DNA from: Deltaproteobacteria bacterium
Lineage (GTDB): Bacteria > Myxococcota > XYA12-FULL-58-9 > JABJBS01
Assembly (NCBI GenBank): GCA_018668695.1
Contig: JABJBS010000383.1
Span: forward strand, 16,753-80,752
Reading direction: 5' to 3'
DNA: 64,000 bases
A model generated the notes under the pieces. That model was not told where the DNA came from, did no database searches, and worked only from the letters and a program-made list of their open reading frames with translations. The position numbers and the translations under genes were made by a program. Positions 11,313 to 46,476 of this stretch are shown piece by piece. The first letter of the stretch is position 1, and each line of letters opens with the position of its first letter.

Positions 11313-11342
11313 AGACGAGCTATTAAAATTAGGGAATATGAA

Positions 11343-18225: not shown

Positions 18226-18238
18226 GTGGCGATGTATT

Positions 18239-19888: not shown

Positions 19889-20060
19889 GGGTTATATGGT
19901 ATTTCTTAACCTTTAATGAATGGGTTGACGCCGTGGGGTCGCCTCCCTATAAGCCACGTGGCAGCCATGGGCTCCTCAAGGTTTGTGAGCCTGACGAAGC
20001 GCCTGATATGTAATAAATGGCTTTTAATTCAACTGTTTCGAGCTTGTTTGAGAGAAAAGT

Positions 20061-20969
20061 GTGAAAACACAAGAGGGTTCAACCATATTGGACGAAGTGA
20101 AGGTGGCTCCTCCGCTTTGGGCACAGTTCAAAGATTTGATGTCGCTGGCTAAACCGCGGCTGTCTTTGTTTGTGATCTTGACTGCTGTGGGCGGGATCTC
20201 CTTTGCCCCGGGTAGTCATCCTCCGCTTAAATCTCTCATCGCAATTCTTTGCACTTCGCTCATCGTGGGTGGAGCAAACGCTCTAAACTGCTTTTTCGAA
20301 CGCGACAAAGATGGCCAGATGCGGCGGACAATGACCCGCCCCTTTCCATCCGGAAGACTACCTCTGTTTTGGCCCATGCTTTTTTGGCTCACGGTGGTTT
20401 TGGTCTCCTTGCCTCTTTTGGCTTGGTCGGCAAACCTTCTTACGGCAGGGATTGGCCTGGGTGCACTGGTCACCTATGCATTCATTTACACGCCTCTTAA
20501 GTACAAAACGCCTCAGGCTTTATATGTCGGTGCAATTCCAGGAGCGGCCCCGCCCCTTATGGGTTGGACCACAGTGACCAATTCTTTGGATTTAGGCGGA
20601 CTTTCTTTGTTCGCCGTACTCTTTTTTTGGCAACTTCCGCATTTTCTCGCCATAAGCCTCTACTTAAAAGAGGATTACGGTCGGGCCGGTATGCAATTGT
20701 ACTCCATTGTATATGGGGAACGCCGTACCCGGATCGCGATTGTGGTGACATCGGTTCTTTTAGTGCCAGCCACTCTCAGTCTTGTTCCTCTTGGGCTCGC
20801 AAATATGTTCTACGGGGCGTGTGCGTTGGCTCTAGGTGCGGCTTTGGTTGTTTACGCCCTTAAGGGGTTTCGACCGGGAGCAGGGAACAAGTGGGCGAGA
20901 AGTATGTTCTTGGCCACACTTATTTATATTCCTTTGCTTTTCGGCGCGATGGTAGCTGGAGCAGTTTAA
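20061..20969 (+). CDS. ctaB: protoheme IX farnesyltransferase (heme O synthase)
   Basis: UbiA-family polytopic membrane protein. NALNCFFERDKDGQMRRTMTRPFPSGRL matches the heme O synthase N..x.D...D..M.RT..RP motif. Second Asp-rich region around FFWQLPHF. Confidence 0.8.
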   Translation: MKTQEGSTILDEVKVAPPLWAQFKDLMSLAKPRLSLFVILTAVGGISFAPGSHPPLKSLIAILCTSLIVGGANALNCFFERDKDGQMRRTMTRPFPSGRLPLFWPMLFWLTVVLVSLPLLAWSANLLTAGIGLGALVTYAFIYTPLKYKTPQALYVGAIPGAAPPLMGWTTVTNSLDLGGLSLFAVLFFWQLPHFLAISLYLKEDYGRAGMQLYSIVYGERRTRIAIVVTSVLLVPATLSLVPLGLANMFYGACALALGAALVVYALKGFRPGAGNKWARSMFLATLIYIPLLFGAMVAGAV

Positions 20970-21969: not shown

Positions 21970-22751
21970 CCGGGCTAAAATACGATTTAAGTACGATTTA
22001 CGTTTTGTGGCGCCGCGACCTCATGCGCTTTTTTACCCAGCCAGCTCGGTTGGTAGGGGCATTGCTGCAGCCACTTATCCTTTGGCTCATTTTGGGATCG
22101 GGTCTAACACCGACCTTTGAATTGCCGGGAATTGAAATTGCTTACCTGGAGTATTTTTTCCCTGGTGTGGTGATGATGGTCTTGGTGCTCTCATCTATTT
22201 TCTCTACGCTCAGTATTATTGAAGACCGTTCTCAGGGCTTTATCCAAATGGTTTTGGCAGGTCCGGGCTCTCGGTCAGCTTTGGTCATTGGTAAATGCTT
22301 GGGTTCAACAAGTGTGGCTTTGATTCAGGTGGCCTTCTTTATCTTGTTGGCTCCAGCGGCTGGTATCTCACTGGGCAATATTGCTTGGCCTTTGCTTTTA
22401 TCAACGATGATGTTGATGAGCTTGGGTCTCACGGCGTTTGGTTTTTTTGTTGCTTGGTTGGTGAACAATTCAAATGGTTACCATGCAGTTCAAATGACGC
22501 TTCTGGTGCCGTTATGGGTTTTGAGCGGAGCGATGTTCCCACCCCACGCCGAAGGCTCGGTTTTGGGATTTTTAATGGGTCTCAATCCCATAGCTTATGG
22601 GATGACCGGTCTTCGTCACGCATTTTATGAAGGCAGTGCGCCGATAAGCACGATACTTAACTTGACCCCGGAGGCTGCTTTGATGGCAGTGTCCGCGTTT
22701 GCTTTGTGTGCTTTGGTGATGGCGATGCTCTGTTGCGAGCAGCGCCGCTAG
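21966..22751 (+). CDS. ABC-2 family transporter permease
   Basis: Six predicted TM helices. ATGA overlap with the upstream ATPase gene. Confidence 0.7.
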   Translation: MTGLKYDLSTIYVLWRRDLMRFFTQPARLVGALLQPLILWLILGSGLTPTFELPGIEIAYLEYFFPGVVMMVLVLSSIFSTLSIIEDRSQGFIQMVLAGPGSRSALVIGKCLGSTSVALIQVAFFILLAPAAGISLGNIAWPLLLSTMMLMSLGLTAFGFFVAWLVNNSNGYHAVQMTLLVPLWVLSGAMFPPHAEGSVLGFLMGLNPIAYGMTGLRHAFYEGSAPISTILNLTPEAALMAVSAFALCALVMAMLCCEQRR

Positions 22752-22758
22752 CTAAAAG

Positions 22759-23145
22759 CTAGTCTTCGTCGCGCGGCTTTAGCCCGATGTGGCTGTCAAA
22801 CTCATCTTCAACAGTATTTGGGTCTTCAGCATTGAACCGAATCAAGTTACGGAGGTGCTCGAGATCATCAAGTGGAACACCGGTGAACTCAATGGCCATG
22901 CCGCCCTCGTTTTGACGCGTCACTTTTCCTACCACTTCCAGGCGAATATCCCGGCCATCTAGAAAAAGCGCGATAGTACATTCAGTACCGATCGGTAACT
23001 TCCCAGTGCTTGGAATGTAGACGCCGTTAAGACTTAAGTCTTCGGCTACGCCATTGATAGAAGCTTTGTCGTCGGCACTTATTTCGGCATCGAGCTGGAT
23101 TCGAACGCGAGTGAACTCACGCCGATTTTCTCCATTTTCACTCAT
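22759..23145 (-). CDS. PilZ domain (c-di-GMP binding) protein
   Basis: RREFTRVR (RxxxR) and DLSLNGVYIP (DxSxxG) PilZ signature pair. Start taken at the internal Met (MSENGEN) rather than the track start at 23193. Confidence 0.7.
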   Translation of the reverse strand: MSENGENRREFTRVRIQLDAEISADDKASINGVAEDLSLNGVYIPSTGKLPIGTECTIALFLDGRDIRLEVVGKVTRQNEGGMAIEFTGVPLDDLEHLRNLIRFNAEDPNTVEDEFDSHIGLKPRDED

Positions 23146-23289
23146 TTTCGAACTCCCCAAACCAGATAATTGGACTAGACCACAATCAACCACATCCCCA
23201 GCCGTGGGTCCAGCTTCTGGTGCAGTTCTACCCTATTCTGGCCCTTCGTGCGTTCTTTCTCAAGTCACGAATCACTCGGTCGGAAATTC

Positions 23290-23370
23290 TTGCATTTTGG
23301 TAAAAGTATGCAAAAATTGCATAGACAACTGACTTCTTTGCATACTTGCCGAAAATTATCGTTCGGCAAG
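23290..23370. promoter_or_regulatory. pair of perfect 9-bp inverted repeats plus repeated TTGCAT motifs upstream of the minor-pilin operon
   Basis: GTATGCAAA (~23306-23314) and TTTGCATAC (~23337-23345) are separated by 22 bp. CTTGCCGAA (~23345-23353) and TTCGGCAAG (~23362-23370) are separated by 8 bp. TTGCAT occurs three times. Confidence 0.4.
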
Positions 23371-23389
23371 ATTTCATACTAGCCTGCAC

Positions 23390-23947
23390 TTGTTAGGTTT
23401 TTTAGCAGCCGACAATGGCACGACTTCTGAAACGGTAAGTATTGTGAGCAACCCAACCAAATCTCGACTTAGAGTCGCCCGCGGGCCTGATGAGCGGGGA
23501 TTTACCCTCATTGAGGTCACCGTTGCGCTTGTGATTTTCACACTGGCAGTTTTGATCGCAGCCAGAATGCAAGGCAATGCCGTGCGCAGCTTAAAGCGAA
23601 CCGGTGAGACTTCCATGGCGATGAACCTAGCGGCATCGACACTTGAGAGTTTACGCGTTGAGATGGCTTTTGATGACATCGATGGGACGGGCCCCAATGT
23701 TTATTACGACCGATTTGGCTATGGCTTTCTAAATACCGGCTTGGCGAACCCCGCTCCATTAAACGCCGCGAATTCAAAGTACATGGTCCGGTGGAGTGCG
23801 GAGAGCCGTGATTATTACGTTGATGTTAATGTAGCCGTTTATTGGAACGCCGGCGGTGTTGGCGCTCCCGTGGTCCCCAGTGAAGCGAAGTACAAGGTGC
23901 GAACTGTGAATACGAGAATCGTGAACCGGGAAGTGTTCAGACGATGA
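23390..23947 (+). CDS. type IV pilus minor pilin (PilV/FimU-like), prepilin-type N-terminus
   Basis: DERG|FTLIEVTVALVIFTLAVL is a class III signal / N-methylation motif. The track start gives a 37-aa leader, so the true start is probably downstream (in-frame GTG near 23444). ATGA overlap with the next gene. Confidence 0.65.
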   Translation: MLGFLAADNGTTSETVSIVSNPTKSRLRVARGPDERGFTLIEVTVALVIFTLAVLIAARMQGNAVRSLKRTGETSMAMNLAASTLESLRVEMAFDDIDGTGPNVYYDRFGYGFLNTGLANPAPLNAANSKYMVRWSAESRDYYVDVNVAVYWNAGGVGAPVVPSEAKYKVRTVNTRIVNREVFRR

Positions 23948-25068
23948 AAAGAACACTGAGATCAAGAGAGCGCGGCGTTACATTGATTGAACTCGCGATA
24001 ACCACTGTGGTTGCTAGCCTTACGATGAGTGCCATTGCACTGACTTCGTTCAACTGGCACCGGTTTTACAATCGCCAGCTTGATGCAGCTGAAGGCCAGC
24101 AAAATGCGCGGGTCTCGCTAAGCGTTTTCAAAGATTACGTCACCCGAGCCGGTTATGGTTTCGTGGCACATACCGACCTGCAAGGCCTCTTGCCCATCGG
24201 AGGATGCTTTAACGATTCAGGTATGGATAGCCTTGACTGCAATGGGGTTGATGGCGGCGCCGACAGGCTGCGCGTTTACTACGGTGATTCTGACGGCATG
24301 GTTCGAACCCGTGAGGGCGATACGAGCACAGGAACCGGTATGGATGGTATCCCGATTGCGGATCAAACCATTTGGGATTCAGACCCTCACGACGGGGTAG
24401 ACGTTCAGGGTAAATACGCGTTTATATCTGGTCAGTGTGATTCAGCCGATGGAACTTATGGATCGGATGTTGTTCGAATCACCGGCGACTCTCCAGGAAA
24501 CCGAAACGCTTTTCACAATTACGATTTTGAGAATATTAATACCGGTGGTCCGGAGTTTTTAGGCTGCCCCGATGGATACCTTGCCTTTAATTTTGGGCTG
24601 GTGAGCATCGCTGATTTTTATCTCGACCAAAGCAACGACAAACACCCCGTACTTAAATTAAGGATCAATGATCCCAACGGCGACTGGGAAGAAGCTATGG
24701 CGCTATCAACCGACATCGACACTATTCAGATTGAATACGGCGTCGATGACGGTCTCAATGGAGGCGATTCAAGCGAGACGCGGCCTGATGGACTGGTCGA
24801 TTTTTGGTGCGATGATCCCCGTGGTGATGGTGACTGCAGTTCACCGGGTCTTTCGGATCGTGAATTACAGGCTCGTATCGTGGCCATTCGAATCGCCATT
24901 GTGGCGCGTACGAGGCAGTACCGACAGGATTTAAACCGTTTGGGTGACCACCGGCTTTTTGTCCAAGATCACATGATCCCGGACCGCAGCGATGGCTATA
25001 ACCGGTACGTGTATCGATCGACTGTATCGATGAGAAATAACGACATTATTTTGAAAGATGGAACATGA
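23944..25068 (+). CDS. pilW: type IV pilus minor pilin PilW-like
   Basis: MKRTLRSRERG|VTLIELAITTVVASLTMSA prepilin N-terminus. Size and position fit PilW. Confidence 0.6.
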   Translation: MKRTLRSRERGVTLIELAITTVVASLTMSAIALTSFNWHRFYNRQLDAAEGQQNARVSLSVFKDYVTRAGYGFVAHTDLQGLLPIGGCFNDSGMDSLDCNGVDGGADRLRVYYGDSDGMVRTREGDTSTGTGMDGIPIADQTIWDSDPHDGVDVQGKYAFISGQCDSADGTYGSDVVRITGDSPGNRNAFHNYDFENINTGGPEFLGCPDGYLAFNFGLVSIADFYLDQSNDKHPVLKLRINDPNGDWEEAMALSTDIDTIQIEYGVDDGLNGGDSSETRPDGLVDFWCDDPRGDGDCSSPGLSDRELQARIVAIRIAIVARTRQYRQDLNRLGDHRLFVQDHMIPDRSDGYNRYVYRSTVSMRNNDIILKDGT

Positions 25069-25616
25069 ACCGCTCCATAAAAAAAGGTGAACGTGGTTGG
25101 ATCCTCATTGTCTCAATGGCCATGACCATTGTTATCACATTTATGGGGATGCTTGTTTTGCAAAGTGCGTCGGTTGACGCTCGGCTTGCGGGCGCGGAAA
25201 GAAACTCTGAGACGGCTCGTTATATTGCTGAAGCAGGGATTGCCTGGGCCGTTGAAAAGCTCAACACCGAGCCAGGACTTATTTCTGGCTCTAATCTTCG
25301 AATCAATACGCTGCTTACCTACAGCACCTATGAATCCTTAGGGGATGATTCGCTTTGTACAGCTGCACAAATTACGCAAAACGAAAATTGTTATCCCAAT
25401 GAGCTGGCGCAGTGGGGCCGGCTTCACCCAGACCAAACGAGTATCGCTTACAACGGCGGCCATTTTCGAGTGGGTGTGCGTGACGATAATGACGACAATA
25501 ACTATTTAGAAGATTCGAACGAGCAATTTTTTATCAGGGCCTATGGCGTGAGTATTCGCGGCGCACGCTCTGTGGTTGAAATTCTCGTATCTCAAAGTGC
25601 AGAGAGTAATTTCTAA
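25065..25616 (+). CDS. pilX: PilX-like minor pilin / pilus assembly protein
   Basis: GERGWILIVSMAMTIVITFMGMLVLQSASVDARLAGAE matches the PilX N-terminal domain (hydrophobic helix followed by ...RLAGN/E). Confidence 0.6.
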   Translation: MNRSIKKGERGWILIVSMAMTIVITFMGMLVLQSASVDARLAGAERNSETARYIAEAGIAWAVEKLNTEPGLISGSNLRINTLLTYSTYESLGDDSLCTAAQITQNENCYPNELAQWGRLHPDQTSIAYNGGHFRVGVRDDNDDNNYLEDSNEQFFIRAYGVSIRGARSVVEILVSQSAESNF

Positions 25617-28600
25617 TGAAATATTTTATTCACCTTGGGCTATTACTCGTTTTGGTCGGTACCGGCGCAACCGTTTGGGCTGATGCAGAAGCTATTTTGT
25701 TAGCGCCACGAACCTTTTCTGAATATTTTACCGACGACTTGTTGGAGGACACGACTGAGGCCGGTAATGGTGAACCTTGCTCCGAACTCGGCTGTGCCCG
25801 TTCATATGGTTGGGGTAAAGGTTATGTGACTCATGCACGTGTTGGCTTTGCGGTACGAGAAGGTAATTACACGCGTATGCCTCAAGCCAGGCCTCCAGCG
25901 CCTGCACCTCTTCCTCCCAGTATTAAGCCCACGCAGGTTGTGGCGGGTCACTTTCGGACCAACTCAAACGGCGGAACGCCTCAGGTGCCTCAAGATGTGA
26001 TCGCGCTAACTGCCAGCAGCGGCGGTTGCCACTTGCACTATATGATGAATAAGGGTCCCGACGATTCTGGTGAAAACCATCTAGGTTGGAACGTCGGGGT
26101 TTTGGTCCCCAGTAACACCTGGACCACCGGGCACTTTGTTTCAGGTCAAGCTAACGGTGCAGACAACTGGTGGTTGGATGTTGACGGGCAGACTGGTGGC
26201 GGCGATGGGATCAATGATCCAGGGGCGGATTGCCAGGCTGATGAGAACAACGACCTCTCGGCGGACAATCAATACGGGACAGCACTTTTTGCCGGTGACT
26301 TTGACAGCGACGGATGGACGGATGTGCTTTATTTACGTGCGGCAGACCGCAACCGAGCAGGCTTTCTAGATTTGGCATACATGTTTTGGAATACGGGTGT
26401 ACTGAATGCCCAAGGTGTGCCGGTTTTTCAGCGGGCTAAATTAGCCAGCAACACACCTCTCTACGAGAAGGGCGTCGCTTGGCACTTTTCCTCTGATATT
26501 GGGGAAGTCGTAGACATGGACAATGATGGTCGCTCGGATTTGGTACTCGCATCAAGCTCAGGATCATCTCACAGAATCATCGTCTTTAGGCAGCAGGGCT
26601 CGCCCAATCGCAGCGACCCATTTCGCAACGGCGAGGTTGTAATCGTCGACCAGGCTATTGGTCCGGCGGCAGACAGCAATAACCCTGCTCGAACAAATTT
26701 TGGGTGTTTGGCTAACGATGGCCCCACACGGGGTATCACTGCGTTAACGGTGGCTGATTTTAGTGGTGATGGCCAAAAAGATATTATCATTGGCTCAATG
26801 AGCGAACAGTATATGTTCTACTATTTTAAAACCGGCCCGGCTAATACGGCCTACGAGTCCACCACAATTTTGAATCCCCGCGGAGGCGTAACCGGTCTTC
26901 ATAAAGGGAATTGGAACCTAGAAGGCGGCGAAGACATCCTGCTAACCCGTTCAGGAAAGGGTTGTTACGGAGACCTCTATCCGGAAGCCAACTTGTGGCT
27001 ACTTGAAAACCAAGAAGCCGATCTGGAACGCGCGCGCTTTAATTTCGACTACGATGCCCCACTTGCGTCTATGAGCAACCACATCCACTACGCAACGCCT
27101 CTAGACTTAGATCATGATGAAGACGGTTATCTCGACTTTATGATGGGCACCAATCAAACTTGGGGCAGCTATTATTATTACGTTCATAATATTTGGAAGG
27201 GTCTCTACAACGCAGATGCTGTGATCATGTCCAAGCGTATGGATAATCTCAATTCACGCGAAGAGGCGATTGTACGAGCAACTTTTTCGGGAGTGATTGC
27301 TGAGGACTATGACGACACGACGATGGACGTTGAGTTTTACTTAAGTAACAACGGCCAAGATTGGGACTTATTGCCCCTCGATGAATTACCGCCCTCAGTA
27401 GGTGGTACCGGCCCCAATCCTCACATTTTTACAACCTTCGGTACGGATCTGCGATGGGCGATTGTTTCTAAAGCCCAAGCGGTTGCGACGGTGGGTGACG
27501 CGGAAAACGCAGCTCTGAATCAAACGGATAAGGTCGCTAAAGTCGTCCCCAAATTCAGTGGGATTCAAATAGCGGTCAATGGCATTGGCGCGGAGTATTA
27601 TTCAAGATCTGGGCTCTCTCAAAAACTCGGCACAGACGAGCGTATTATTTATTCTGCATCTTTTCGATACCCCGGTAACGAAGGCTTTTTACGAGCGTAT
27701 GATTTAACCGATGTTGGAGTGGGTCAGGCTCAAAGTGGTGTGAACCCCGGACCGAACCCTCATTTGTCTTTGATGTGGGAGGCTGGAGCTTTGTTGAAAG
27801 ACCGAGCAAGCACAAGCAGAAGAATTCTAACCTATGAGGTTAATGACTCGGGCGATGTTGGATCTTTGGTCGAGTTGTCGGAAGGGACCCCAGATCTTGC
27901 CAATATGTTGGGATTCACTGAGAACGACGATGCGGTCTCGCTTTTTCAATTTGTTCGCGATGGCCTCGACCACCCAGATGGCTGGAAGTTTTATGACGTG
28001 GGGCACTCCTCGCCCGTGTATGTTGGGGCGCCGACCGGCCCGGCTGAGTATGGCGCATATTCGGTGAATAACTACGAGGCCTTTCAAGAAGCCGAGGTAA
28101 GCCGAAATGGTGTGGTTTACATCGGTTCCAATGGCGGCGGACTGCATGCTTTCGATGCAGATACAGGTCATGAGAAATGGATGTTCATTCCAAACAACTT
28201 GCTGAGCAAGCTTAAAGATCTCAGAGACGATTCAAACAACTACCGTGCCGATTACATCATGGATGGACCGATTGTGATTCAGGATGTCTACCAGGAATCT
28301 TTGGGGAAGTGGCGAACCGTGTTGTTAGCCGGTCAAGCCAAGGGCGTTGGTGGCGACGGGTTCAACTATTATTTTGCATTAGATATTACCGATCCTGGAA
28401 CTGACCCGATACCATTATGGGAATACAGCGATACGACAGACAATGAAGGTGACGTTTGCTCAGGTAATCCACAATACGAAACAGAAGAGTGTCAACCCGG
28501 CGCATGCGATGACGGATGCTCTCAAGACGGACGCGTTTATGCGCAACAAGACAGCGAAACTTACGGCGAGATGGTGGTTCTAGACGCAGCATACGCCGAT

Positions 28601-30418
28601 GTACTTGTGGATATGACTGCGATCAGCGGTAACAATTCTCGGCTGACGGTGGATGCTGGGTCGCAGAGCTGCCCCACGCCCTCTTCGAGCCAAAGCTTGC
28701 AGGGCGTTTACGCAAGTGGCTGCCCGCTGGCTCAATACAAGTTTAACCTTGAAGCAGCGAAGGATAAGTTCTTCGTCTTTATGCGTGTTCGAAATACAGA
28801 AGATACCGGCGCCAACTTGCTTTGGTATTCCATTAATAACGATGAATCTTATGCTCGCGTGGATGAAACAATTAAAGTGACTGCTGGAAGTGGCACCGAC
28901 TGGAAGTGGGTCAAAAGTTTGGTTCAACCGGTATTGGGATCAGGGAATCACGATTTAACGATCTGGAGCCTGAGCGACAAGCTAGAGGTTGAACAGATTG
29001 TCATTACGACCAAGGACTTAAATATAGGTAGCTTGGAAGCGGCAAACCTTTCCTCAGAGTGTTTGGAGATTTGCCAGCCTCAAGTTTGTCAGACAGTGAC
29101 GAAAGTTGTTGCAGACCCGACGAATATGGAATGGCCCGAATGCGGAGTTGGTAAGGAGTTGAAGTGTTGCAGTTATGCTTCAAACTCAAGCACCTATCTT
29201 GAGGGCGGAAGTTTTTGTCGGCCGGTGGCAGAAGACTGTGCAAGCTCTGTTCCGGATGCGGCCATGGGTGAAACGTGGAGTGAACCCGCGATTGGCCGAG
29301 TGCTATTAAACAACAAGGCAGAATGGGTTGTGTTCTTTGCCAGCGGTTACAGCAATCTTAAAAACAGCAATGTTGGCCGTACCGTTTACGCACTGGATGC
29401 TTACACGGGCGAAAAGTTAAAAGACTGGACTCTTAAAGAAGAGGCGCCTGCTCTTGGTGAGGGCTCGGCTGAGATTCCAACGATCAATATTGAAAACGCT
29501 TTGACGGCCTCACCGATGCTTGTGGATCTGAGTACTGAGGACAAGCCTGGTTATGGCTATGTGGACCGGCTTTATATTGGCGATCTAGAGGGCAGGGTTT
29601 GGAAGATTGTGATGGACGTGAACAGCCGTGGCAATATCGATCAATGGAAGCGCTGCGTATTCTTCGATGCCGGTGATTATGATGGAGATGGTCTGCGTAA
29701 CTGGGCACCGATTATCACTCGGCCGCAAGTTGCGATGATTGAAACAGGGCAACCCAACGTTTTCTTTGGTACCGGTGGAGACGATAGAGCACCCAATGAT
29801 GTGCGCTACCGGTTTTACGCGGTTCAAGATGAAGAGCCTCCTGGGGTTTGCGCTGCAGAAACAGATCTTTCGAAAGCCAAGAACGCAACAGATATGCGTT
29901 TCGGCAACACGGGCAACTTCGAATGGGTCATGGGCGATGGCTTTAAAAACTCCGAGTGGCCACTTCAGCCCGTGACGAATGCAAGTGAAGAAGGCGACAG
30001 CGGAGACCGGTACTGGTCAGATCCTCTTATCGTTGACAATGAACTGATTTACTTTGCCTCTTTGGCGGGCAAGATCGAGTCTGTGGATCCAACGGTTAAT
30101 ATCGCGGGCGGTGATTCAAAGATATACTGCGTGGCGATTCGAAACTCTTCGGAGCTTAACCTCAAAGCCGGTGAGTCTTGTTGGACATCCGGTTCTGTGT
30201 TTGAGCGTGAGTCGGTGAAGATTAGAAAAGCGATGATGGTTCAAGGTATTGCCCAGGAAGCATGGGCCCGAGATGCTTTGCCGCAAGGCACGGATGAGGC
30301 GAATATTTTTTATCAGCGCTTTTCTGAGTCTGAAACTCCTCCGCCAACACTTGTTCACCAAGGAACTGGCCGCGCAGGGTTGATTAAAATTCTACGCTGG
30401 CGTGAGGTACCGTTATGA
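25616..30418 (+). CDS. pilY1: PilY1/PilC-like type IV pilus tip-associated adhesin (1600 aa)
   Basis: Signal peptide. N-terminal FG-GAP-like Ca-binding repeats (FAGDFDSDGWTDVLYL, DMDNDGRSDLVLAS, TVADFSGDGQKDIIIGS, LDLDHDEDGYLDFMMG). C-terminal PilY1-type beta-propeller blades (VVYIGSNGGGLHAFDADTGHEKWMFIPN; RLYIGDLEGRVWKI; LIYFASLAGKI). Operon position is between pilX and a fimT-like gene. Confidence 0.75.
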   Translation: MKYFIHLGLLLVLVGTGATVWADAEAILLAPRTFSEYFTDDLLEDTTEAGNGEPCSELGCARSYGWGKGYVTHARVGFAVREGNYTRMPQARPPAPAPLPPSIKPTQVVAGHFRTNSNGGTPQVPQDVIALTASSGGCHLHYMMNKGPDDSGENHLGWNVGVLVPSNTWTTGHFVSGQANGADNWWLDVDGQTGGGDGINDPGADCQADENNDLSADNQYGTALFAGDFDSDGWTDVLYLRAADRNRAGFLDLAYMFWNTGVLNAQGVPVFQRAKLASNTPLYEKGVAWHFSSDIGEVVDMDNDGRSDLVLASSSGSSHRIIVFRQQGSPNRSDPFRNGEVVIVDQAIGPAADSNNPARTNFGCLANDGPTRGITALTVADFSGDGQKDIIIGSMSEQYMFYYFKTGPANTAYESTTILNPRGGVTGLHKGNWNLEGGEDILLTRSGKGCYGDLYPEANLWLLENQEADLERARFNFDYDAPLASMSNHIHYATPLDLDHDEDGYLDFMMGTNQTWGSYYYYVHNIWKGLYNADAVIMSKRMDNLNSREEAIVRATFSGVIAEDYDDTTMDVEFYLSNNGQDWDLLPLDELPPSVGGTGPNPHIFTTFGTDLRWAIVSKAQAVATVGDAENAALNQTDKVAKVVPKFSGIQIAVNGIGAEYYSRSGLSQKLGTDERIIYSASFRYPGNEGFLRAYDLTDVGVGQAQSGVNPGPNPHLSLMWEAGALLKDRASTSRRILTYEVNDSGDVGSLVELSEGTPDLANMLGFTENDDAVSLFQFVRDGLDHPDGWKFYDVGHSSPVYVGAPTGPAEYGAYSVNNYEAFQEAEVSRNGVVYIGSNGGGLHAFDADTGHEKWMFIPNNLLSKLKDLRDDSNNYRADYIMDGPIVIQDVYQESLGKWRTVLLAGQAKGVGGDGFNYYFALDITDPGTDPIPLWEYSDTTDNEGDVCSGNPQYETEECQPGACDDGCSQDGRVYAQQDSETYGEMVVLDAAYADVLVDMTAISGNNSRLTVDAGSQSCPTPSSSQSLQGVYASGCPLAQYKFNLEAAKDKFFVFMRVRNTEDTGANLLWYSINNDESYARVDETIKVTAGSGTDWKWVKSLVQPVLGSGNHDLTIWSLSDKLEVEQIVITTKDLNIGSLEAANLSSECLEICQPQVCQTVTKVVADPTNMEWPECGVGKELKCCSYASNSSTYLEGGSFCRPVAEDCASSVPDAAMGETWSEPAIGRVLLNNKAEWVVFFASGYSNLKNSNVGRTVYALDAYTGEKLKDWTLKEEAPALGEGSAEIPTINIENALTASPMLVDLSTEDKPGYGYVDRLYIGDLEGRVWKIVMDVNSRGNIDQWKRCVFFDAGDYDGDGLRNWAPIITRPQVAMIETGQPNVFFGTGGDDRAPNDVRYRFYAVQDEEPPGVCAAETDLSKAKNATDMRFGNTGNFEWVMGDGFKNSEWPLQPVTNASEEGDSGDRYWSDPLIVDNELIYFASLAGKIESVDPTVNIAGGDSKIYCVAIRNSSELNLKAGESCWTSGSVFERESVKIRKAMMVQGIAQEAWARDALPQGTDEANIFYQRFSESETPPPTLVHQGTGRAGLIKILRWREVPL

Positions 30419-30936
30419 GCCGAGGGATGCGAAGGGCAGAGCGAGGTTTTACGCTCACTGAGTTGATGGTCATCGTGGGTATCATTGGTATCTTGGCAAC
30501 TATCTCGGCTGGTGATTTTCGCAAATGGCTACGGAGTCAAAAACTTAATGAGCTTACGCGAGAAGTGTTTCATACCTTGGTGGTGGCCCGCAGTAAGGCT
30601 GTTAAAAATGGTGTGACTGTAACCGTTACGTTTAGCAACGCTGGGCTTTTGGCGTTTGTTGATTACGACGAAGACGGCGTGTTCACGAGAAATTCAGATT
30701 CGATAATCTATCAGGGTAAAGTTGGCGATCGACAGCTTTCAACGCGCGCCAATACCGTGGTGGAGGTGACCGATGCTCCCGCCAAAGTGCTCTTCAATGG
30801 GCAAGGTTACAGTGTAAACGACGACGGCGAACCGAGGCCGGCTCGGGTCCGCATTTTCGACACCCATCCGACAGTGGCCAGTGATAACATCCACTTTTTG
30901 GGTATTACTTATCCGGGCGCCGTACGTATCGAATAA
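30415..30936 (+). CDS. FimT/GspH-like type IV minor pilin (pseudopilin)
   Basis: MSRGMRRAERG|FTLTELMVIVGIIGILATI prepilin motif. About 170 aa, as for FimT/GspH-family proteins. Confidence 0.65.
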   Translation: MSRGMRRAERGFTLTELMVIVGIIGILATISAGDFRKWLRSQKLNELTREVFHTLVVARSKAVKNGVTVTVTFSNAGLLAFVDYDEDGVFTRNSDSIIYQGKVGDRQLSTRANTVVEVTDAPAKVLFNGQGYSVNDDGEPRPARVRIFDTHPTVASDNIHFLGITYPGAVRIE

Positions 30937-31038
30937 ACGCCTTTTCCCACCAAATCTTCTAAGCCTTTGATAATAAAAGTAAATGATGCTTTGCGGCAAT
31001 TGGATCTGACGTGGGGGCCATGTTAATGTGACCCGGTT

Positions 31039-31527
31039 ATGGCCAATGATAGTGTTGAAGCAACGTTTGCTGCCCTTGTGGAGTTTGTCGCTAATTCGTT
31101 TATGCGCGGAGACATTACCGTCTCGGATCTGCTGGGCCTCGATGATGAGGAAATCGAAACGGTTTTTCTCATGGGCCACTATCTCTACAACTTCGGTAAG
31201 TATCAGCCATCCTTAAATGTTTTCAGTGTTTTAACGCTTTATAAGCCGTTTGTGAGCCGTTACTGGCGAGCTGCGGGTGCGGCGAACCAAGCTCTGAAAA
31301 ACTATAAGGAAGCCATTGCGGCTTACGACATGGCACTGACGACGAACACGGGGGATGTCATCAGCTACACCTACCGAGGTGAGTCTAAAATCAGTGCAGG
31401 TCTCACGGATGAAGGTCTTGAAGATCTTAAGGTAGCCATCGAGGTGGGCCAGGCCCAGCCTTACTATGCCCAGTGGGTCAATCGTTCGCGTATGCTCTTG
31501 GAAGTGCGCGGAATTGAGGTGGAATGA
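31039..31527 (+). CDS. cytoplasmic three-TPR protein resembling type III secretion class II chaperones (SycD/LcrH/CesD family)
   Basis: No signal peptide. 162 aa. DEEIETVFLMGHYLYNFGKYQPSLNVFSVLTLYKPFVSRYWRAAGAANQALKNYKEAIAAYDMAL...YTYRGESKISAGLTDEGLEDLKVAI aligns position-by-position with SycD (LEQLYSLAFNQYQSGKYEDAHKVFQALCVLDHYDSRFFLGLGACRQAMGQYDLAIHSYSYGA...AAECLLQKGELAEAESGL). Conserved GKY, VF, SR(Y/F), GA, Y..AI..Y and GL positions. Confidence 0.6.
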   Translation: MANDSVEATFAALVEFVANSFMRGDITVSDLLGLDDEEIETVFLMGHYLYNFGKYQPSLNVFSVLTLYKPFVSRYWRAAGAANQALKNYKEAIAAYDMALTTNTGDVISYTYRGESKISAGLTDEGLEDLKVAIEVGQAQPYYAQWVNRSRMLLEVRGIEVE

Positions 31528-31599
31528 TTCTTTTTGGATTTTGCTTTAACCTAAGTGAAGCTTAATCCGGTAGAATGAACACGCGTTAAGGAGTGTGTT

Positions 31600-32313
31600 A
31601 TGGCAGGTCCCGGAGATATTCGCTCAGGCAAAGCAGGCCCAATTCAGGTTCCAGCCACCGAGCAAAAGACCCAAGCTCAAGTTCAGAAAAAAGATGCGAA
31701 GAAGGTAAGCCCCCAAGATGCGGCAAGGCTTGCTCAGCAGGCAGGCTTTCACAAATCGAAGAGAGGCCGCGGAGGGTTCGATGTTGGGGATTCGTCCCAG
31801 GCGCCCATTCCATTGCCAGATGACGAACTCGATCCTGACGCCTGGAGTCAGCAAGGCCTTGATAATGCTCAGCAAACACTCAGCTCGGCCGGACCTCAAT
31901 TGGAGAGTGCCATTGCAGACTTAAAAGATGGTTTGGGTTTGGGAGAGGCTTTTGTCGAAGGGGCATTTATGCCCACTGAAAAAGATTTAGCCCGTTTACA
32001 GGCACTTAAAGAGCGTGAGCCTGAGCCTCAGCCGGATATGAACTCCGTTTCAGAGAGCTTAAAAAATCTTTTTGGGGTGGAGTTTAACGAGGATATGTCA
32101 GTGGCCGAACGTGCCATGGCTGTCGGCTTGATGGTTGCTGGGCAGTCAGAACAGGTCAAAATCGACGCCGGAACGATCAATCGAGAGGAACTTTTGGCTG
32201 GACTGCGAAAAGTCACTGAAAAAGGTAACCAATCAGTGGGCCAAGCGCAAAAGATGAATAAGGGAATTGACCAGCAATTGAACCTGCAGCGAACTTTCGT
32301 TTTTAAACGCTGA
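31600..32313 (+). CDS. hydrophilic low-complexity protein (237 aa), candidate chaperone substrate
   Basis: Strong RBS (taAGGAGtgtgtt ATG). No TM segment or signal peptide. Q/A/K-rich and predicted largely disordered or coiled-coil. Confidence 0.45.
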   Translation: MAGPGDIRSGKAGPIQVPATEQKTQAQVQKKDAKKVSPQDAARLAQQAGFHKSKRGRGGFDVGDSSQAPIPLPDDELDPDAWSQQGLDNAQQTLSSAGPQLESAIADLKDGLGLGEAFVEGAFMPTEKDLARLQALKEREPEPQPDMNSVSESLKNLFGVEFNEDMSVAERAMAVGLMVAGQSEQVKIDAGTINREELLAGLRKVTEKGNQSVGQAQKMNKGIDQQLNLQRTFVFKR

Positions 32314-32393
32314 TGTGAGTTCTTCCCGACGAATCGATGATTTATGGCTCGTAAAGAGCCGATAGTTTTAACTTAAAATTTTTGGAGTCTTCC

Positions 32394-33113
32394 ATGTCTA
32401 TCCCTTCCTCTGGAAACGTGGGTCAAATGCCCCCTGCCGTTTCTTCCGTAGCTACTTCCAAGACCGCTTCTCTTAATGAGCAAATTACCAATGTCCTTGC
32501 GGAGATTATGGCGATTGTTGCTCAAGCTCAGCAGCTTAGTGAATCCGTAAAGGGCCTCAAGGAAGCTAAAAAGTCTTTAAATGCTCAGCGACCCAACCGC
32601 GAGAACTTCGATAAAGACGAAGATTACTCAGCGGCCTTGAGCGCTTGGCAGAGCAATGTGGGTGATTTGCAGGGTCAAATCGATGGCCTCAACGACCAAA
32701 TCGAAAAACTCTTTCAAGATGTGGCGCAGGCGCAGCAAAAGGTTCAAGGGCTAGAAAGTCAAAAAGGCACGGCGGCATCGGAAGATGCTGAAGCGATGCG
32801 CCAAGAGATGGACCGGCTCAAGGATTCGGTCTCTGCACTTGATAAGGCGGCAGACGAAGTTTCTGAGGGAACGAGTGAAAAGAGCTCGTCACGCGCGGGC
32901 CGTAAGCTCGAAATCAAAAAGATTGAGCGCCAAGTTCCAGTTGAAGACGTTAACAACCCGGAGCTTAAGGCAGCGATTCGCACGTTTGCGTTAATGCTCT
33001 CAGATATGGGCGATGCTTCCAGCACCCAGAATATGTACACGGGCGGCGCTAAAACAGCTCCCGCATCAGGCTTACCGATGCCAGGAACTGGCGAACCTAA
33101 AGCAACACGTTAA
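32394..33113 (+). CDS. coiled-coil protein (239 aa) paralogous to the next gene; EspA/translocon-like candidate substrate
   Basis: Starts MSIPSSGNVGQMPP, trimmed from the track's TTG start. Preceded by TTTTTGGAGTCT. Central heptad region (LQGQIDGLNDQIEKLFQDVAQAQQKVQGLESQK). No TM segment. Confidence 0.5.
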   Translation: MSIPSSGNVGQMPPAVSSVATSKTASLNEQITNVLAEIMAIVAQAQQLSESVKGLKEAKKSLNAQRPNRENFDKDEDYSAALSAWQSNVGDLQGQIDGLNDQIEKLFQDVAQAQQKVQGLESQKGTAASEDAEAMRQEMDRLKDSVSALDKAADEVSEGTSEKSSSRAGRKLEIKKIERQVPVEDVNNPELKAAIRTFALMLSDMGDASSTQNMYTGGAKTAPASGLPMPGTGEPKATR

Positions 33114-33122
33114 TACATGACG

Positions 33123-33163
33123 GGTGAAGGCTGACCAACATTCAGCGGCCTTCACCCTTTTGA
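33123..33163 (+). terminator. rho-independent terminator
   Basis: gggtgaaggc-N16-gccttcaccc hairpin followed by TTTTG, 10 nt after the stop of the 239-aa gene. Confidence 0.6.
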
Positions 33164-33203
33164 ATCGATACATTTTAAACACTTATTTTTTTGGAGTCTC
33201 AAC

Positions 33204-34049
33204 ATGACATCACCTATTGGAAATAATCCAGGCCTCAGTATCCCTCAAATCCCAACGGCAGCTCAGCCGGCAGCCACTCCTGCAGCGGCTCAGGCGCAGC
33301 TACCAACAGACGGATTTGAGGCAGGTGGGCAAGCAGCCAACAATGCTGTGAATCAAATTCTTAGTAGCCTCGGGCTCGAGGTTGGAAACAGCACCATTGT
33401 TTCCCAGCTAAGCAGCAGCCAGCTTGGCCAACTCAGTGCAATTGGCGCGAGTATGAACGGTTCTTCTACCAGCGAGTTACAGGGACAGTTTGCAGAATTT
33501 CTTCAGGCAGGCCCAACGATTCATTACCAAGATGTGAACGCGCTGGTTCAGCAAGTGTTGCGCGAAGCTTATACGCAAAACACTGAAGACCTGCGTATGT
33601 ATGCTGAGAAAGTTAAAGACTTTAACAAGCAAAAAGAAATGATTCGTGACCACTTGAGCGATATGCGCAAAGAGCTAACGTCTGCGCGTGAAGGTGCGAT
33701 TTCAAGCGGCGTAACGGGTGATGATGCAATGAGCACACATGGCCTAAGCGGTGATGTTGTAGCTTACGACCCAGCTACCGCCACTGAAGGCAGTGACGCT
33801 CACGCCAAGATGATGATGGGAATGTCTTCTAGCCTTTCAGCTGGCGGCGTCGATACCATCGGTAAGCTCGAGGATGAAATCCAAACTTGGGAAGATAAGT
33901 TAAACAGTGTGGGCGACGATGCTCAGCTTGCAAACGTAGATCTTCAGAACATGCTTCAAAAGCAGCAGCAGACTTTGCAGATGATGAGTAATATCTCGAA
34001 AGCACTGCATGACACAGCAATGGCCATCATTCGTAAGATGGGCGGTTGA
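33204..34049 (+). CDS. coiled-coil protein (281 aa) with an EspA/needle-family-like C-terminal helix; candidate secreted filament/translocon-type substrate
   Basis: N-terminus MTSPIGNNPGLSIP parallels the preceding gene. Same upstream TTTTTGGAGTCT. C-terminal LANVDLQNMLQKQQQTLQMMSNISKALHDTAMAIIRKMGG resembles the conserved C-terminal heptad helix of EspA / T3SS needle / flagellin-type proteins. No TM segment. Confidence 0.5.
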   Translation: MTSPIGNNPGLSIPQIPTAAQPAATPAAAQAQLPTDGFEAGGQAANNAVNQILSSLGLEVGNSTIVSQLSSSQLGQLSAIGASMNGSSTSELQGQFAEFLQAGPTIHYQDVNALVQQVLREAYTQNTEDLRMYAEKVKDFNKQKEMIRDHLSDMRKELTSAREGAISSGVTGDDAMSTHGLSGDVVAYDPATATEGSDAHAKMMMGMSSSLSAGGVDTIGKLEDEIQTWEDKLNSVGDDAQLANVDLQNMLQKQQQTLQMMSNISKALHDTAMAIIRKMGG

Positions 34050-34072
34050 TGTCTAGTATGATAGACTGATTG

Positions 34073-34100
34073 GGCGGGCGCCAAGCCCGCCCTTTTTTTG
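34073..34100 (+). terminator. strong rho-independent terminator
   Basis: GGGCGGGCgccaaGCCCGCCC followed by TTTTTTT, 24 nt after the stop of the 281-aa gene. Confidence 0.8.
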
Positions 34101-34113
34101 AGTTGAGGACGCC

Positions 34114-36387: not shown

Positions 36388-36398
36388 GAGCTGCCGGC

Positions 36399-42788: not shown

Positions 42789-42965
42789 CCCGGTACAACG
42801 CTGTTTGCTACGATTTAGGACTCAGCTTCTTGCAACGAAATGGGCACGGGCATTGCCTGCAAGTAGGCTTTTCGATATTTCTCATATGTCTCGGTCCATA
42901 AGGGATCGGTGCCCGGTTGTTTCGATAACTATGATATTTTGAGATGTTTAGGGTTGGGTTTTCCA

Positions 42966-43945: not shown

Positions 43946-43958
43946 TAGAACTTGAAGT

Positions 43959-46473: not shown

Positions 46474-46476
46474 AGA

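Follow-up and report, generated by a model that had tools for sequence, protein, structure and literature searches.

An FG-GAP-type PilY1 with a nested carbohydrate-binding-module-like insert, encoded in a minor-pilin operon of an uncultured deltaproteobacterium

Introduction

What a type IV pilus adheres to is determined by PilY1, which in Pseudomonas aeruginosa also determines how the cell senses a surface. In this species, the core minor pilins and a Sec-exported PilY1 are encoded together in the fimU-pilVWXY1Y2E cluster and serve in pilus priming and tip adhesion. In Myxococcus xanthus, three minor-pilin/PilY1 clusters (clusters 1–3) are unlinked to the genes of the pilus machine and encode large, Cys-rich PilY1 proteins whose N-terminal domain varies and has been proposed to determine adhesion specificity (PMC7541494, PMC13190605). 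PilY1.1 and PilY1.2 contain DUF4114, which is a sugar-binding-type domain, and PilY1.3 contains vWFA; these two are the only recognized PilY1 N-terminal domains in that literature (PMC7541494, PMC13190605). A 2026 survey of PilY1 identified no conserved domains beyond vWFA and DUF4114, and the words FG-GAP, VCBS, sandwich, and carbohydrate are absent from it.

The locus described here lies in a 64-kb stretch of DNA that was analyzed as a whole (hereafter the window). It resembles the P. aeruginosa cluster in encoding core minor pilins together with a PilY1 that is predicted to be Sec-exported, and a role in pilus priming and tip adhesion is presumed. However, the gene order is V-W-X-Y1-(GspH type), without pilY2 or pilE. 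The window PilY1, presumably about 440 aa longer than that of P. aeruginosa, has a homologous C-terminal beta-propeller, but its N-terminal half is of the FG-GAP rather than the vWA type, a CBM-like insert of about 280 aa breaks the propeller, and a 14-residue loop stands in place of the 9-residue calcium-binding loop. As in M. xanthus, the cluster is apart from machine genes and the PilY1 is large and Cys-rich, with an N-terminal half that may confer specificity. In contrast to M. xanthus, its lectin-like module is nested in the C-terminal propeller instead of being N-terminal.

Operon structure and genomic context

Five open reading frames on the plus strand (positions 23444–30936 of the window) form a run in which each gene overlaps the next. 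The stop/start overlaps, from gene 1 to gene 5, are ATGA, ATGA, TAATG, and ATGA, such that the junction sequences bear out the chain reported in the earlier note. The identical set of four overlaps is found in the orthologous locus L003 (65% identical). This chaining by overlapping stop and start codons favors coupled translation and matched product amounts.

Gene 1 (23444..23947) encodes a PilV/GspI-like minor pilin. Although the mechanical ORF begins at TTG 23390, the start is most likely GTG 23444, which gives a 19-aa leader, because in the L003 orthologue the leader is 18 aa long and a stop codon closes the frame upstream of it. The N_methyl domain (PF07963) scores 31.2 bits, above the cut-off, whereas the PilV model TIGR02523 reaches 42.2 bits against a cut-off of 52.2 and covers the N-terminal 64 aa only; the gene is thus named by its N-terminus and position. 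Gene 2 (23944..25068; 374 aa) encodes a PilW (GspJ-like) minor pilin, with PF16074 at 49.7 bits (E 4.8e-13; cut-off 26) and N_methyl below its cut-off (18.9 vs. 21.2). Gene 3 (25065..25616; 183 aa) encodes a PilX (GspK-like) tip minor pilin with PilX_N (PF14341) at 29.7 bits (cut-off 25.5). It is followed by gene 4 (25616..30418; 1600 aa), which encodes the PilY1-family adhesin, and gene 5 (30415..30936; 173 aa), which encodes a GspH-family (FimU/FimT-type) minor pilin supported by PF12019 (26.1 bits; cut-off 21), N_methyl (28.4 bits, above the cut-off), and TIGR01708 GspH (5e-8). Pfam and NCBIfam assignments agree with each other and with the PilV-, PilW-, PilX-, PilY1-, and GspH/FimT-like labels proposed earlier. 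All four core families (PilV/GspI-, PilW/GspJ-, PilX/GspK-, and FimU/GspH-like) are represented and, apart from the PilY1 architecture, the operon is an ordinary minor-pilin/PilY1 module.

Family by family, the set of four minor pilins is also homologous to the GspH-I-J-K tip complex of type II secretion systems (T2SS), which like the window set is presumed to prime and cap a filament. The PilY1, PilW (PF16074), and PilX_N signatures place the module with type IVa pili (T4aP) rather than T2SS, and no T2SS genes are present near the operon.

Upstream, a divergent intergenic (promoter) region (23194..23443, no strand assigned) contains sequence blocks that are invariant in four lineages (the window, L088, L089, and L003). 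One invariant block, TGGCACGACTTCTGAAAC (23416–23433), includes in its first 16 bases (23416–23431) a sigma-54-like −24/−12 element, a pattern matched once against 0.13 matches expected. An inverted-repeat search revealed an invariant palindrome, TATGCAA-N3-TTGCATA (23307–23323). On the other side of this region, a PilZ-domain protein (PF07238, E 3.3e-13) with the RxxxR (RREFTR) and DxSxxG (DLSLNG) motifs is encoded on the minus strand (22759..23145). The position of this gene is conserved in L001–L003, L088, and L089, and this adjacency suggests that the protein belongs to the pilus system, possibly as a regulatory partner. No genes for a major pilin, PilB/T/C/M-Q, or PilD are present within the 64-kb window, and we assume that the operon is linked to a working pilus machine. 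A block of T3SS-chaperone-like (SycD-like)/coiled-coil and family-less genes lies 3′ of the operon, with no detectable terminator in between.

Prepilin leaders

The four prepilin leaders are PDERG↓FTLIEV (gene 1), SRERG↓VTLIEL (gene 2), KGERG↓WILIV (gene 3), and RAERG↓FTLTEL (gene 5). Genes 1, 2, and 5 follow the class III signal peptide pattern with Glu+5, i.e., ERG↓(F/V)TL(I/T)E, whereas gene 3 lacks Glu+5, as do PilX and GspK. A shared R-x-E-R-G leader had been proposed; E-R-G is common to all four, but Arg at −5 occurs in gene 5 only (RAERG). By itself, ERG is a common leader ending: in 80 related loci, 13 of 175 prepilin leaders have it (9 of 171 when orthologues are left out). Three or more identical −3 to −1 tripeptides occur in only one of the 47 loci with at least three detectable prepilins, namely the orthologue L003. 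The unusual uniformity of the leader set is therefore real and is conserved in the lineage (L003, L004, L088, and L089).

Identity of PilY1 and its C-terminal propeller

The gene 4 product has 24 Cys residues, a number within the range reported for PilY1 proteins (PMC13190605). Its N-terminus, MKYFIHLGLLLVLVGTGATVWA↓DA (aa 1–23, ending in VWA↓DA), reads by eye as n-, h-, and c-regions followed by an AXA-like site, i.e., a predicted Sec-type signal peptide. A comparison of the C-terminal domain with the PilY1 propeller had been set in advance as a check on the identification, and the two match: PF05567 scores 42.9 bits (cut-off 28.1), and P. aeruginosa PilY1 (3hx6_A) aligns to aa 795–946 (E 7.8e-14) and, weakly, to a second stretch (aa 1292–1333). 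When aa 937–1216 are removed in silico, a single contiguous PF05567 match is obtained (profile positions 5–282 of 411, 51.8 bits), and the last ~130 profile positions remain unmatched by Pfam. The gene also adjoins and overlaps core minor pilin genes, with genes 1–3 upstream and gene 5 downstream. On these sequence grounds, the identity as PilY1 is solid.

The propeller is encoded in two parts on the plus strand. Part 1 (aa ~676–936; 27641..28423) is delimited by PF05567 positions 6–166, 3hx6 residues 47–190, and the family alignment, and closes with a conserved P-L-W-E motif. Part 2 (aa 1218–1600; 29267..30418), which is joined to part 1 by the insert-deleted PF05567 match spanning the junction, starts with G-E-T-W-S and ends in ILRWREVPL, a C-terminus that is conserved in the alignment as LRWRE(V/I)PL. 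At the position of calcium-binding motif 1, most relatives in the alignment keep the 9-aa D-x-[DN]-x-D-G-x-x-D, but the window lineage lacks this motif and has the 14-aa DLSTEDKPGYGYVD instead (29525..29566, plus strand). This motif is common but not universal in characterized PilY1 proteins (PMC13190605). Because the canonical loop is swapped for a longer one, calcium-controlled behavior may differ. The NCBI name of the protein is only ‘PQQ-binding-like beta-propeller repeat protein’, which makes it invisible to keyword surveys of pili.

N-terminal FG-GAP half

The FG-GAP (integrin-alpha-like) repeat region (aa ~100–520; 25913..27175, plus strand) was defined by Pfam and loop alignment. It contains four canonical DxDxDG loops (aa 228–236, 300–308, 381–389, and 497–507) and two degenerate ones (aa ~110–127 and 432–440). 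FG-GAP_3 (34.9 bits vs. 26.9) and FG-GAP (31.2 vs. 22.1) both exceed their Pfam cut-offs. The Pfam and NCBIfam matches at E ≤ 0.1 include no vWA domain. These scores and loop positions agree with the four calcium loops, and with FG-GAP in place of vWA, as read from the sequence earlier. The structural model of this half is poor (mean pLDDT 50); Foldseek searches with it returned FG-GAP propellers on top (4a7k, CRTAC1, PVL lectin, and integrins), at TM scores of only 0.2–0.36.

A nested beta-sandwich with Cys-rich flanks

Alignment with insert-free relatives places the insert at aa ~937–1217. The earlier note was right that an insert is present, but its extent is ~280 aa rather than ~150 aa near aa 960–1120. 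It is a true insertion, since the insert-free relatives P0006 and P0007 and 66 genome loci have 20 aa or fewer between PLWE and GxTWS. The insert has three parts, all on the plus strand. The N-terminal flank (aa 937–974; 28424..28537), which is missing from insert-free relatives, contains four Cys residues (C948, C959, C964, and C968) that are invariant in five orthologues, and is modeled at pLDDT below 50–60. The core (aa ~975–1135; 28538..29020) contains two Cys residues and is assigned to a galactose-binding-domain-like beta-sandwich of the CBM6/CBM35/GH115_C type by model, Foldseek, and family profile. The C-terminal flank (aa 1136–1217; 29021..29266) has eight Cys residues and was delimited by aligning 21 insert-bearing proteins, in which it shows a class-wide motif (EWPECGxGxxLKCC...FCxP...C) with W1173, C1176, C1184, C1185, and C1201 nearly invariant. 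The Cys-rich stretch noted previously after the sandwich (ECLEICQPQVCQ...ECGVGKELKCC, aa 1148–1185) is indeed there, but Cys-rich sequence also precedes the sandwich. All 14 Cys residues of the insert are invariant in the five orthologues.

The insert model was built from five sequences and has a mean pLDDT of 67, with the Cys-rich flanks at low confidence. In this model, the core is a predicted all-beta sandwich (pLDDT 76–87), which Foldseek matches to CBM35 and CBM6 at TM 0.72–0.74. A profile of 16 inserts searched against the PDB gave CBM35/CBM6 at 1e-6 to 3e-5, GH115 at 7e-4, and 8zvk at 9e-16. The window protein itself is divergent: GH115_C (PF17829) scores 15.7 bits, below its cut-off of 24.1, and the first-strand motif ‘EAE’ of relatives is ‘DAA’, but two motifs typical of CBM modules, WxW and that of the final strand, are retained. 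Among homologous inserts, those of P0013 (39.8 bits) and P0030 (25.5 bits) exceed the PF17829 cut-off. Whether the insert folds independently, or is simply a propeller loop, had been set beforehand as a check; the all-beta model, the Foldseek and profile matches, and GH115_C in relatives argue for a separate fold and support the suggested likeness to a carbohydrate-binding beta-sandwich. Fold and sequence family suggest that the insert may bind carbohydrates. To our knowledge, sugar binding by the C-terminal domain itself is not established for GH115 enzymes, so the fold is no proof of binding. The window module also differs from CBM6/CBM35/CBM36 and GH115 domains in its setting, being located within a pilus adhesin rather than a glycoside hydrolase and flanked by Cys-rich segments.

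Within the insert, pN is 0.13–0.38, far below the saturated pS of ~0.8. No other part of PilY1 evolves as fast as the sandwich (45–80% amino acid identity vs. 73–92% for the propeller), whereas the flanks are the most conserved part of the insert (63–85%).

Distribution of the architecture

The 1600-aa protein was found identical on three independent contigs, and four more full-length orthologues (1593–1618 aa; 65–86% identity) have no internal stops and keep the synteny. Throughout PilY1, pS far exceeds pN. Another ~16 metagenomic clusters at 50% identity (15 of 1470–1720 aa and one of 1226 aa) share the nested architecture, so the uniqueness implied earlier does not stand. Likewise, the length of 1600 aa is correct but ‘unusually large’ holds only in part, as three of these clusters are longer. 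Among the insert-bearing relatives, the V-W-X-Y1-GspH order recurs in L085, and L086 and L087 likewise lie in minor-pilin clusters.

Insert-free proteins from Aminicenantes and other MAGs (P0006, P0007, and L005–L083) have the same FG-GAP N-terminal half and PilY1 propeller and are 26–31% identical to the window protein over aa ~223–1598. They are common in Aminicenantes MAGs, with a median of 1204 aa, and 132 species genomes in the scan encode a relative. P0006 is likewise encoded in a minor-pilin cluster (fimU/T-like, pilV, pilW, pilX, and pilY1), which adjoins a prepilin peptidase gene. Unlike the window locus, the insert-free group keeps the canonical calcium-binding motif 1 and has heterogeneous leaders. 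Neither type of FG-GAP-PilY1, with or without the insert, is described in the literature searched; the window PilY1 is an undescribed but not unique architecture variant of a well-known adhesin family.

Discussion

Taken as a whole, the locus is probably best explained as a self-contained module of core minor pilins and PilY1 that forms the tip/priming complex of a type IVa pilus. By analogy with P. aeruginosa and M. xanthus, prepilin peptidase would cleave each minor pilin after the Gly of ERG, and the four minor pilins and PilY1 would assemble in the inner membrane, prime a major pilin encoded elsewhere, and then travel at the pilus tip, as in the priming/tip-complex model (PMC7541494). By the same analogy, the PilY1 C-terminal propeller would dock on PilX, and the remaining PilY1 would face outwards as the adhesin; PilX-PilY1 strand complementation and N-terminal domain variability have been described (PMC13190605). 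The N-terminal ligand-binding module would then be a calcium-loop propeller of the FG-GAP (integrin-alpha/PVL-lectin) type instead of vWA or DUF4114. A second module, the CBM6/CBM35/GH115_C-type sandwich, is set into a C-terminal propeller loop between PLWE and GETWS, on a pedestal of two Cys-rich segments whose 12 invariant Cys residues are presumably disulfide-bonded in the periplasm. Judging from fold and family, the sandwich may be a second surface- or glycan-binding head, giving a tip with two adhesive sites.

Whether both heads act as lectins is more doubtful. Integrin alpha and the GlcNAc-binding PVL lectin share the FG-GAP propeller fold, but the proposal that this propeller and the CBM6/35-like sandwich both bind cell-surface or matrix glycans is speculative and, in our view, rather unlikely. 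Possible, though still short of probable, is that the sandwich has a structural or regulatory role and that adhesion depends on the N-terminal FG-GAP half alone; the sandwich may, for instance, brace or shield the propeller, mediate oligomerization, or make contact with minor pilins or the secretin. The loss of the ‘EAE’ motif in the window lineage and the strong conservation of the rigid pedestal relative to the sandwich are consistent with such a role. However, the inserts match CBM35/CBM6 better than GH115 in profile searches, the CBM-typical WxW and final-strand motifs are kept, and the sandwich evolves faster than its frame, as expected of an exposed recognition surface.

The module may also serve another type IV filament, such as a T2SS-like pseudopilus, a DNA-uptake pilus, or a predation-specific fiber, possibly with the products of the downstream SycD-like/coiled-coil genes as cargo. 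The homology to GspH/I/J/K, the lack of T4aP machine genes in the 64-kb window, the conserved block that follows without a detectable terminator, and the Bdellovibrionales/Deltaproteobacteria labels of the MAG relatives would fit this scenario. Nevertheless, we consider it improbable, as PilY1, PilW, and PilX_N are hallmarks of T4aP rather than T2SS clusters, T4aP minor-pilin/PilY1 clusters are commonly apart from machine genes (PMC13190605), and the synteny of the downstream block is limited to close relatives (65–86% identity) and absent from L085–L087. Finally, the sequences come from metagenome-assembled genomes, in which a fused ORF, a chimeric contig, or a decaying pseudogene could produce a long protein with an apparent insert. 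The chance of such an artifact is negligible: the independent contigs and the intact, syntenic orthologues rule it out, and the low pN relative to pS and the presence of the nested layout in more distant proteins also contradict it.

The tip/priming module of a type IVa pilus remains our preferred interpretation, and the data point to two further PilY1 architectures: an FG-GAP type that is frequent in Aminicenantes MAGs and a rarer subclass with a nested CBM-like domain. If both propeller and sandwich are lectin-type heads, the pilus tip could recognize polysaccharides of prey cells or particles, given that relatives are labeled Bdellovibrionales; the altered calcium loop would place extension and retraction outside the classical PilY1 calcium switch; and FG-GAP-PilY1 proteins, with the nested CBM or lacking it, would make up a third and fourth major PilY1 class beside the vWFA and DUF4114 types. 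If the nested module binds glycans, these proteins would exemplify a naturally occurring pilus tip with a pair of binding heads and would offer a way to study how uncultured lineages recognize substrates or prey.

Organization of the minor-pilin operon

Five ORFs on the + strand (23390–30936) form an operon that belongs to the well-known minor-pilin/PilY1 class. As described in an earlier note, made from the sequence alone, these genes are chained by short overlaps. The junctions on the + strand read ATGA between genes 1 and 2 (23944–23947), genes 2 and 3 (25065–25068), and genes 4 and 5 (30415–30418), and TAATG between genes 3 and 4 (25614–25618). The four-base ATGA is the commonest overlap type in bacterial operons. 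The orthologous locus L003 has an identical set of four overlaps, though its PilY1 is only 65% identical, which indicates that this arrangement is conserved rather than accidental.

Gene 2 encodes PilW (PF16074, 49.7 bits vs. a cut-off of 26), gene 3 matches PilX_N (29.7 bits vs. 25.5), and gene 5 has the N_methyl and GspH domains (GspH 26.1 bits vs. 21). Gene 1 also has an N_methyl match, while the PilV and GspI models score below their trusted cut-offs and cover only the N-terminal ~64 residues. Gene 4 (25616–30418) matches the PilY1 propeller (PF05567, 42.9 bits vs. 28.1), the FG-GAP_3 and FG-GAP models, and the solved C-terminal domain of Pseudomonas aeruginosa PilY1 (3hx6; E = 7.8e-14). 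By these assignments, the operon has one member of each of the four core minor-pilin families (GspH-, I-, J-, and K-like), accompanied by PilY1 and no further gene. In Myxococcus xanthus, the same composition forms a priming complex for pilus assembly that ends at the pilus tip (PMC7541494). For gene 1, the mechanical start (TTG, 23390) corresponds to a 37-aa leader and the GTG at 23444 to a 19-aa leader. Because a stop codon shuts the equivalent upstream frame of L003, where the leader has 18 aa, the GTG is the likely start. A lipoprotein signal was considered and is unsupported. A composition bias indicative of horizontal transfer is likewise unsupported, the GC content being flat at ~0.50 across the window.

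The leaders of the four minor pilins end in PDERG, SRERG, KGERG, and RAERG. Thus, E-R-G is present in all four, whereas the longer R-x-E-R-G motif given in the earlier note is not common to them. ERG is retained by every minor pilin in the four orthologous loci (L003, L004, L088, and L089). Across 80 related loci, ERG outnumbers every other tripeptide, yet it ends only 13 of 175 leaders (9 of 171 without the orthologues). Three identical tripeptides were found in one of the 47 loci with at least three recognizable prepilins, and that one is the orthologue L003. In the distant loci that bear the PilY1 insert described below, the leader endings are mixed (xRG/xAG). The presence of ERG in all orthologous loci and the rarity of such uniformity elsewhere indicate a genuine lineage trait, which shared descent or a preference of the prepilin peptidase could explain. 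The window contains no major pilin or PilD with which to compare the leaders.

Domain architecture of PilY1

PilY1 has 1600 aa and a Sec-type N-terminus. Four canonical DxDxDG loops (aa 228–236, 300–308, 381–389, and 497–507) are present in its N-terminal half, and no vWA domain was detected with Pfam or NCBIfam, in agreement with the earlier note. Two more loop positions (aa ~110–127 and 432–440) are canonical in relatives and degenerated in this protein. Membership of the N-terminal half in the FG-GAP repeat family is established by these sequence matches. A seven-bladed propeller fold is suggested by modelling: the top-ranking Foldseek matches are FG-GAP propellers with seven blades, namely aldos-2-ulose dehydratase, CRTAC1, the GlcNAc-binding PVL lectin, and integrin alpha chains, with TM scores of only 0.2–0.36 for a model (alignment A4, 10 sequences, aa 24–700) that has a mean pLDDT of 50 and leaves the first ~200 residues unmodelled.

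Alignment with insert-free relatives shows that the C-terminal propeller is interrupted at aa 937–1217, between the conserved PLWE and GETWS motifs. When this segment is removed in silico, two Pfam stretches become one contiguous match (profile positions 5–282) and the PF05567 score rises from 42.9 to 51.8 bits. Together with the 3hx6 match, these results answer the question of whether the C-terminal domain is a PilY1 propeller in the affirmative. The C-terminus, (I/L)LRWRE(V/I)PL, is kept across the class. At the loop equivalent to calcium-binding motif 1 of PilY1, most relatives have D-x-[DN]-x-D-G-[FY]-x-D. The corresponding loop in the window lineage is DLSTEDKPGYGYVD (29525–29566; aa 1304–1317), with 14 residues vs. 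nine, such that the classical calcium site is not conserved in this lineage. Three relatives (P0030, P0031, and P0035) have a Cys pair within a still longer motif-1 loop.

The insert has three parts: a 4-Cys flank, a core of ~160 aa (aa ~975–1135) with two Cys, and an 8-Cys flank. The earlier description of a beta-sandwich resembling a carbohydrate-binding module (CBM), followed by a Cys-rich stretch, holds, while the extent had to be revised to aa 937–1217 and a Cys-rich flank also precedes the core. All 14 Cys residues are invariant among five orthologues, and C948, W1173, C1176, C1184, C1185, and C1201 are nearly invariant in 23 class members. When modelled alone (five sequences), the core is all-beta with a pLDDT of 76–87, the flanks being unreliable in the model. 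Foldseek TM scores of 0.72–0.74, normalized to CBM35 2w1w and CBM6 5fui, further indicate a separate fold. In comparison with PDB chains, a profile of 16 inserts matches 8zvk (9e-16), CBM35 2w3j/2vzp (1e-6), CBM6 1uxz (3e-5), and GH115 4zmh (7e-4). The homologous inserts of two relatives, P0013 and P0030, pass the Pfam GH115_C threshold, whereas the window copy (15.7 bits) is below it (24.1). The first-strand motif is 'EAE' in relatives and 'DAA' in the window insert.

Outside PilY1, the closest relatives of the sandwich are two tandem arrays of four GH115_C domains each, namely a secreted subtilase (P0023; Peptidase_S8 + 4x PF17829) and a 957-aa protein (P0028). GH115_C also occurs alongside an amidohydrolase in Gemmatimonadaceae (P0155). 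These combinations suggest that the module moves among secreted proteins well beyond glycoside hydrolases.

Distribution of related proteins

With the insert as query, an exhaustive HMMER search gave 33 matches at E < 1e-3. Based on the whole-insert alignment, there are ~16 further clusters at 50% identity (15 of 1470–1720 aa and one of 1226 aa), all metagenomic, with FG-GAP and PilY1 domains and the same three-part insert layout. An insert-only profile search (alignment A8) returned only six proteins and missed the query sequences themselves; a fragment from a Myxococcota MAG (P0034) comes from this search. With a full-length profile (alignment A3, 23 sequences), the matches in a word-indexed protein database were dominated by generic FG-GAP/VCBS proteins and the insert-bearing relatives were not recovered.

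In a scan of contigs representing one genome per species, relatives are encoded on 132 stretches, most of them from Aminicenantes MAGs. The scan relied on peptide patterns characteristic of close family members and may thus miss distant insert-bearing proteins. L004 (labelled uncultured Bdellovibrionales; 75% identity) is the only one of the 80 retained loci to have the insert. The remaining loci have at most 20 residues at that position, with a median protein length of 1204 aa. An apparent 342-aa motif spacing in one locus (L057) was a false motif match. Regarding gene order among the more distant insert-bearing loci, L085 has the V-W-X-Y1-GspH order of the window, L086 and L087 have other minor-pilin arrangements, and L084 is an orphan. 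L087 has two FG-GAP-PilY1 paralogues (8001–12575 and 17540–20575; 1524 and about 1492 aa) on one metagenomic contig. Genes for a CheA-like kinase, CheW, and an MCP are located between these paralogues, a layout that hints at a chemosensory link for the FG-GAP-PilY1 class.

In NCBI, the PilY1 of the window is named 'PQQ-binding-like beta-propeller repeat protein', and the name given to P0046, a relative from Kofleriaceae, is 'FG-GAP-like repeat-containing protein'. As neither name says PilY1, surveys that look for pilus genes by name miss this class.

Upstream and downstream regions

A gene for a PilZ-domain protein (22759–23193, - strand; PF07238, 3e-13) is located divergently upstream of gene 1 and has the same position at all orthologous loci. 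The protein, which gene callers begin 16 codons in (128 aa), has intact c-di-GMP-binding motifs RxxxR (RREFTR) and DxSxxG (DLSLNG). The conserved position and intact motifs make this gene a candidate c-di-GMP input to the pilus module. The 250-bp intergenic region (23194–23443) contains several blocks that are invariant across four lineages with 65–86% identical PilY1. Among these, the end of the 18-bp TGGCACGACTTCTGAAAC (23416–23433) is 11 bases upstream of the gene 1 start codon (GTG). This block matches the sigma-54 -24 box perfectly (TGGCACG) and the -12 box imperfectly (CTGAA vs. TTGCW). Its first 16 bases, expressed as TGGCACG-N4-YTGMW, occur once in the window vs. 0.13 expected by chance. 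The other invariant blocks include a palindrome, TATGCAA-N3-TTGCATA (23307–23323), and GAAAATTATCGTT. For the canonical sigma-54 pattern, TGGCAC-N5-TTGCW, the window shows no enrichment. A promoter/terminator scan of 22700–31700 found nothing beyond chance and thus sets no 3' boundary to the operon.

Downstream of the operon, without a detectable terminator, is a conserved block (31039–36890) that is also present in L003, L088, and L089. It is bracketed by two genes for TPR proteins resembling T3SS class-II chaperones of the SycD/LcrH family (31039–31527, + strand, and 36399–36890, - strand), with TIGR02552 scores of 92.3 bits, just below the cut-off of 104.8, and 107.7 bits, above it. Their best PDB match is SycD 4nrh_B (7e-9). 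Between them are four family-less proteins, one of 237 aa, a coiled-coil protein of 243 aa, one of 281 aa, and one of 757 aa. The 281-aa protein ends in …DLQNMLQKQQQTLQMMSNISKALHDTAMAIIRKMGG, which may resemble the C-terminal helices of T3SS needle/tip proteins; its sequence has no match in PDB. No T3SS apparatus genes are present in the window. The rest of the window contains genes for haem/cytochrome biogenesis, ABC transport, GlmU/GlmS, sensor kinases, and chemotaxis (CheR/CheB/CheX), and it has no pilus machine genes. The chemotaxis accessory set is dense (42909–47505 and 58688–59158), with two CheR, one CheB, and three phosphatases of the CheX-like type. Genes for an ankyrin-repeat protein (47806–48435) and hybrid sensor kinases are interspersed among them. 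Another large Cys-rich neighbour, an 855-aa protein with DUF4215 repeats (882–3449; PF13948, 3e-20), is probably secreted.

Proposed function of the pilus module

Gene content, coupling signals, domain architecture, and the fold of the insert are demonstrated by these data, which also indicate its family through relatives, and a working model may be drawn by analogy with model systems (PMC7541494; PMC13190605). Cleavage by prepilin peptidase would fall just behind the ERG tripeptide. Together with PilY1, the four minor pilins would form a priming complex that later caps the fibre, in which the C-terminal domain of PilY1 would contact PilX through strand complementation, with the rest of PilY1 facing outward. 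Judging from fold, there are two putative binding modules, the FG-GAP domain and the CBM-like sandwich nested in the propeller, and the Cys-rich flanks may form a disulfide-stabilized pedestal.

In the main alternative, the sandwich would have a structural role and would not bind a ligand, which appears unlikely, if worth serious consideration. The sandwich is the fastest-evolving segment among orthologues (45–80% identity vs. 73–92% for the propeller). As synonymous sites are saturated (pS 0.68–0.87), pN was compared with pS and relative rates were used in place of dN/dS; pN (0.13–0.38) is far below the synonymous differences. The sandwich is thus constrained but plastic. That the operon serves a different type IV filament is considerably less probable still. 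A gene fusion or assembly artefact behind the size and insert of PilY1 is excluded by full-length orthologues and independent contigs, an identical protein being encoded by three contigs, among them those of two NCBI MAGs that are labelled Deltaproteobacteria bacterium.

This PilY1 is a family member through its propeller and differs from the characterized proteins in N-terminal domain type, nested CBM-like domain, non-canonical calcium loop, and length. A 2026 survey of PilY1 diversity states that vWFA and DUF4114 are the only conserved domains identified so far and does not mention FG-GAP or carbohydrate-binding folds (PMC13190605). Literature on PilY1 with FG-GAP, 'carbohydrate-binding module', or Bdellovibrio was also searched, and no description of this architecture was found. 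Given the variants of the motif-1 loop, calcium-dependent control of the pilus may differ within this class. Taken together, these findings extend PilY1 diversity in a concrete way that is open to testing, by a form that is unsurprising in kind and not confined to one genome.
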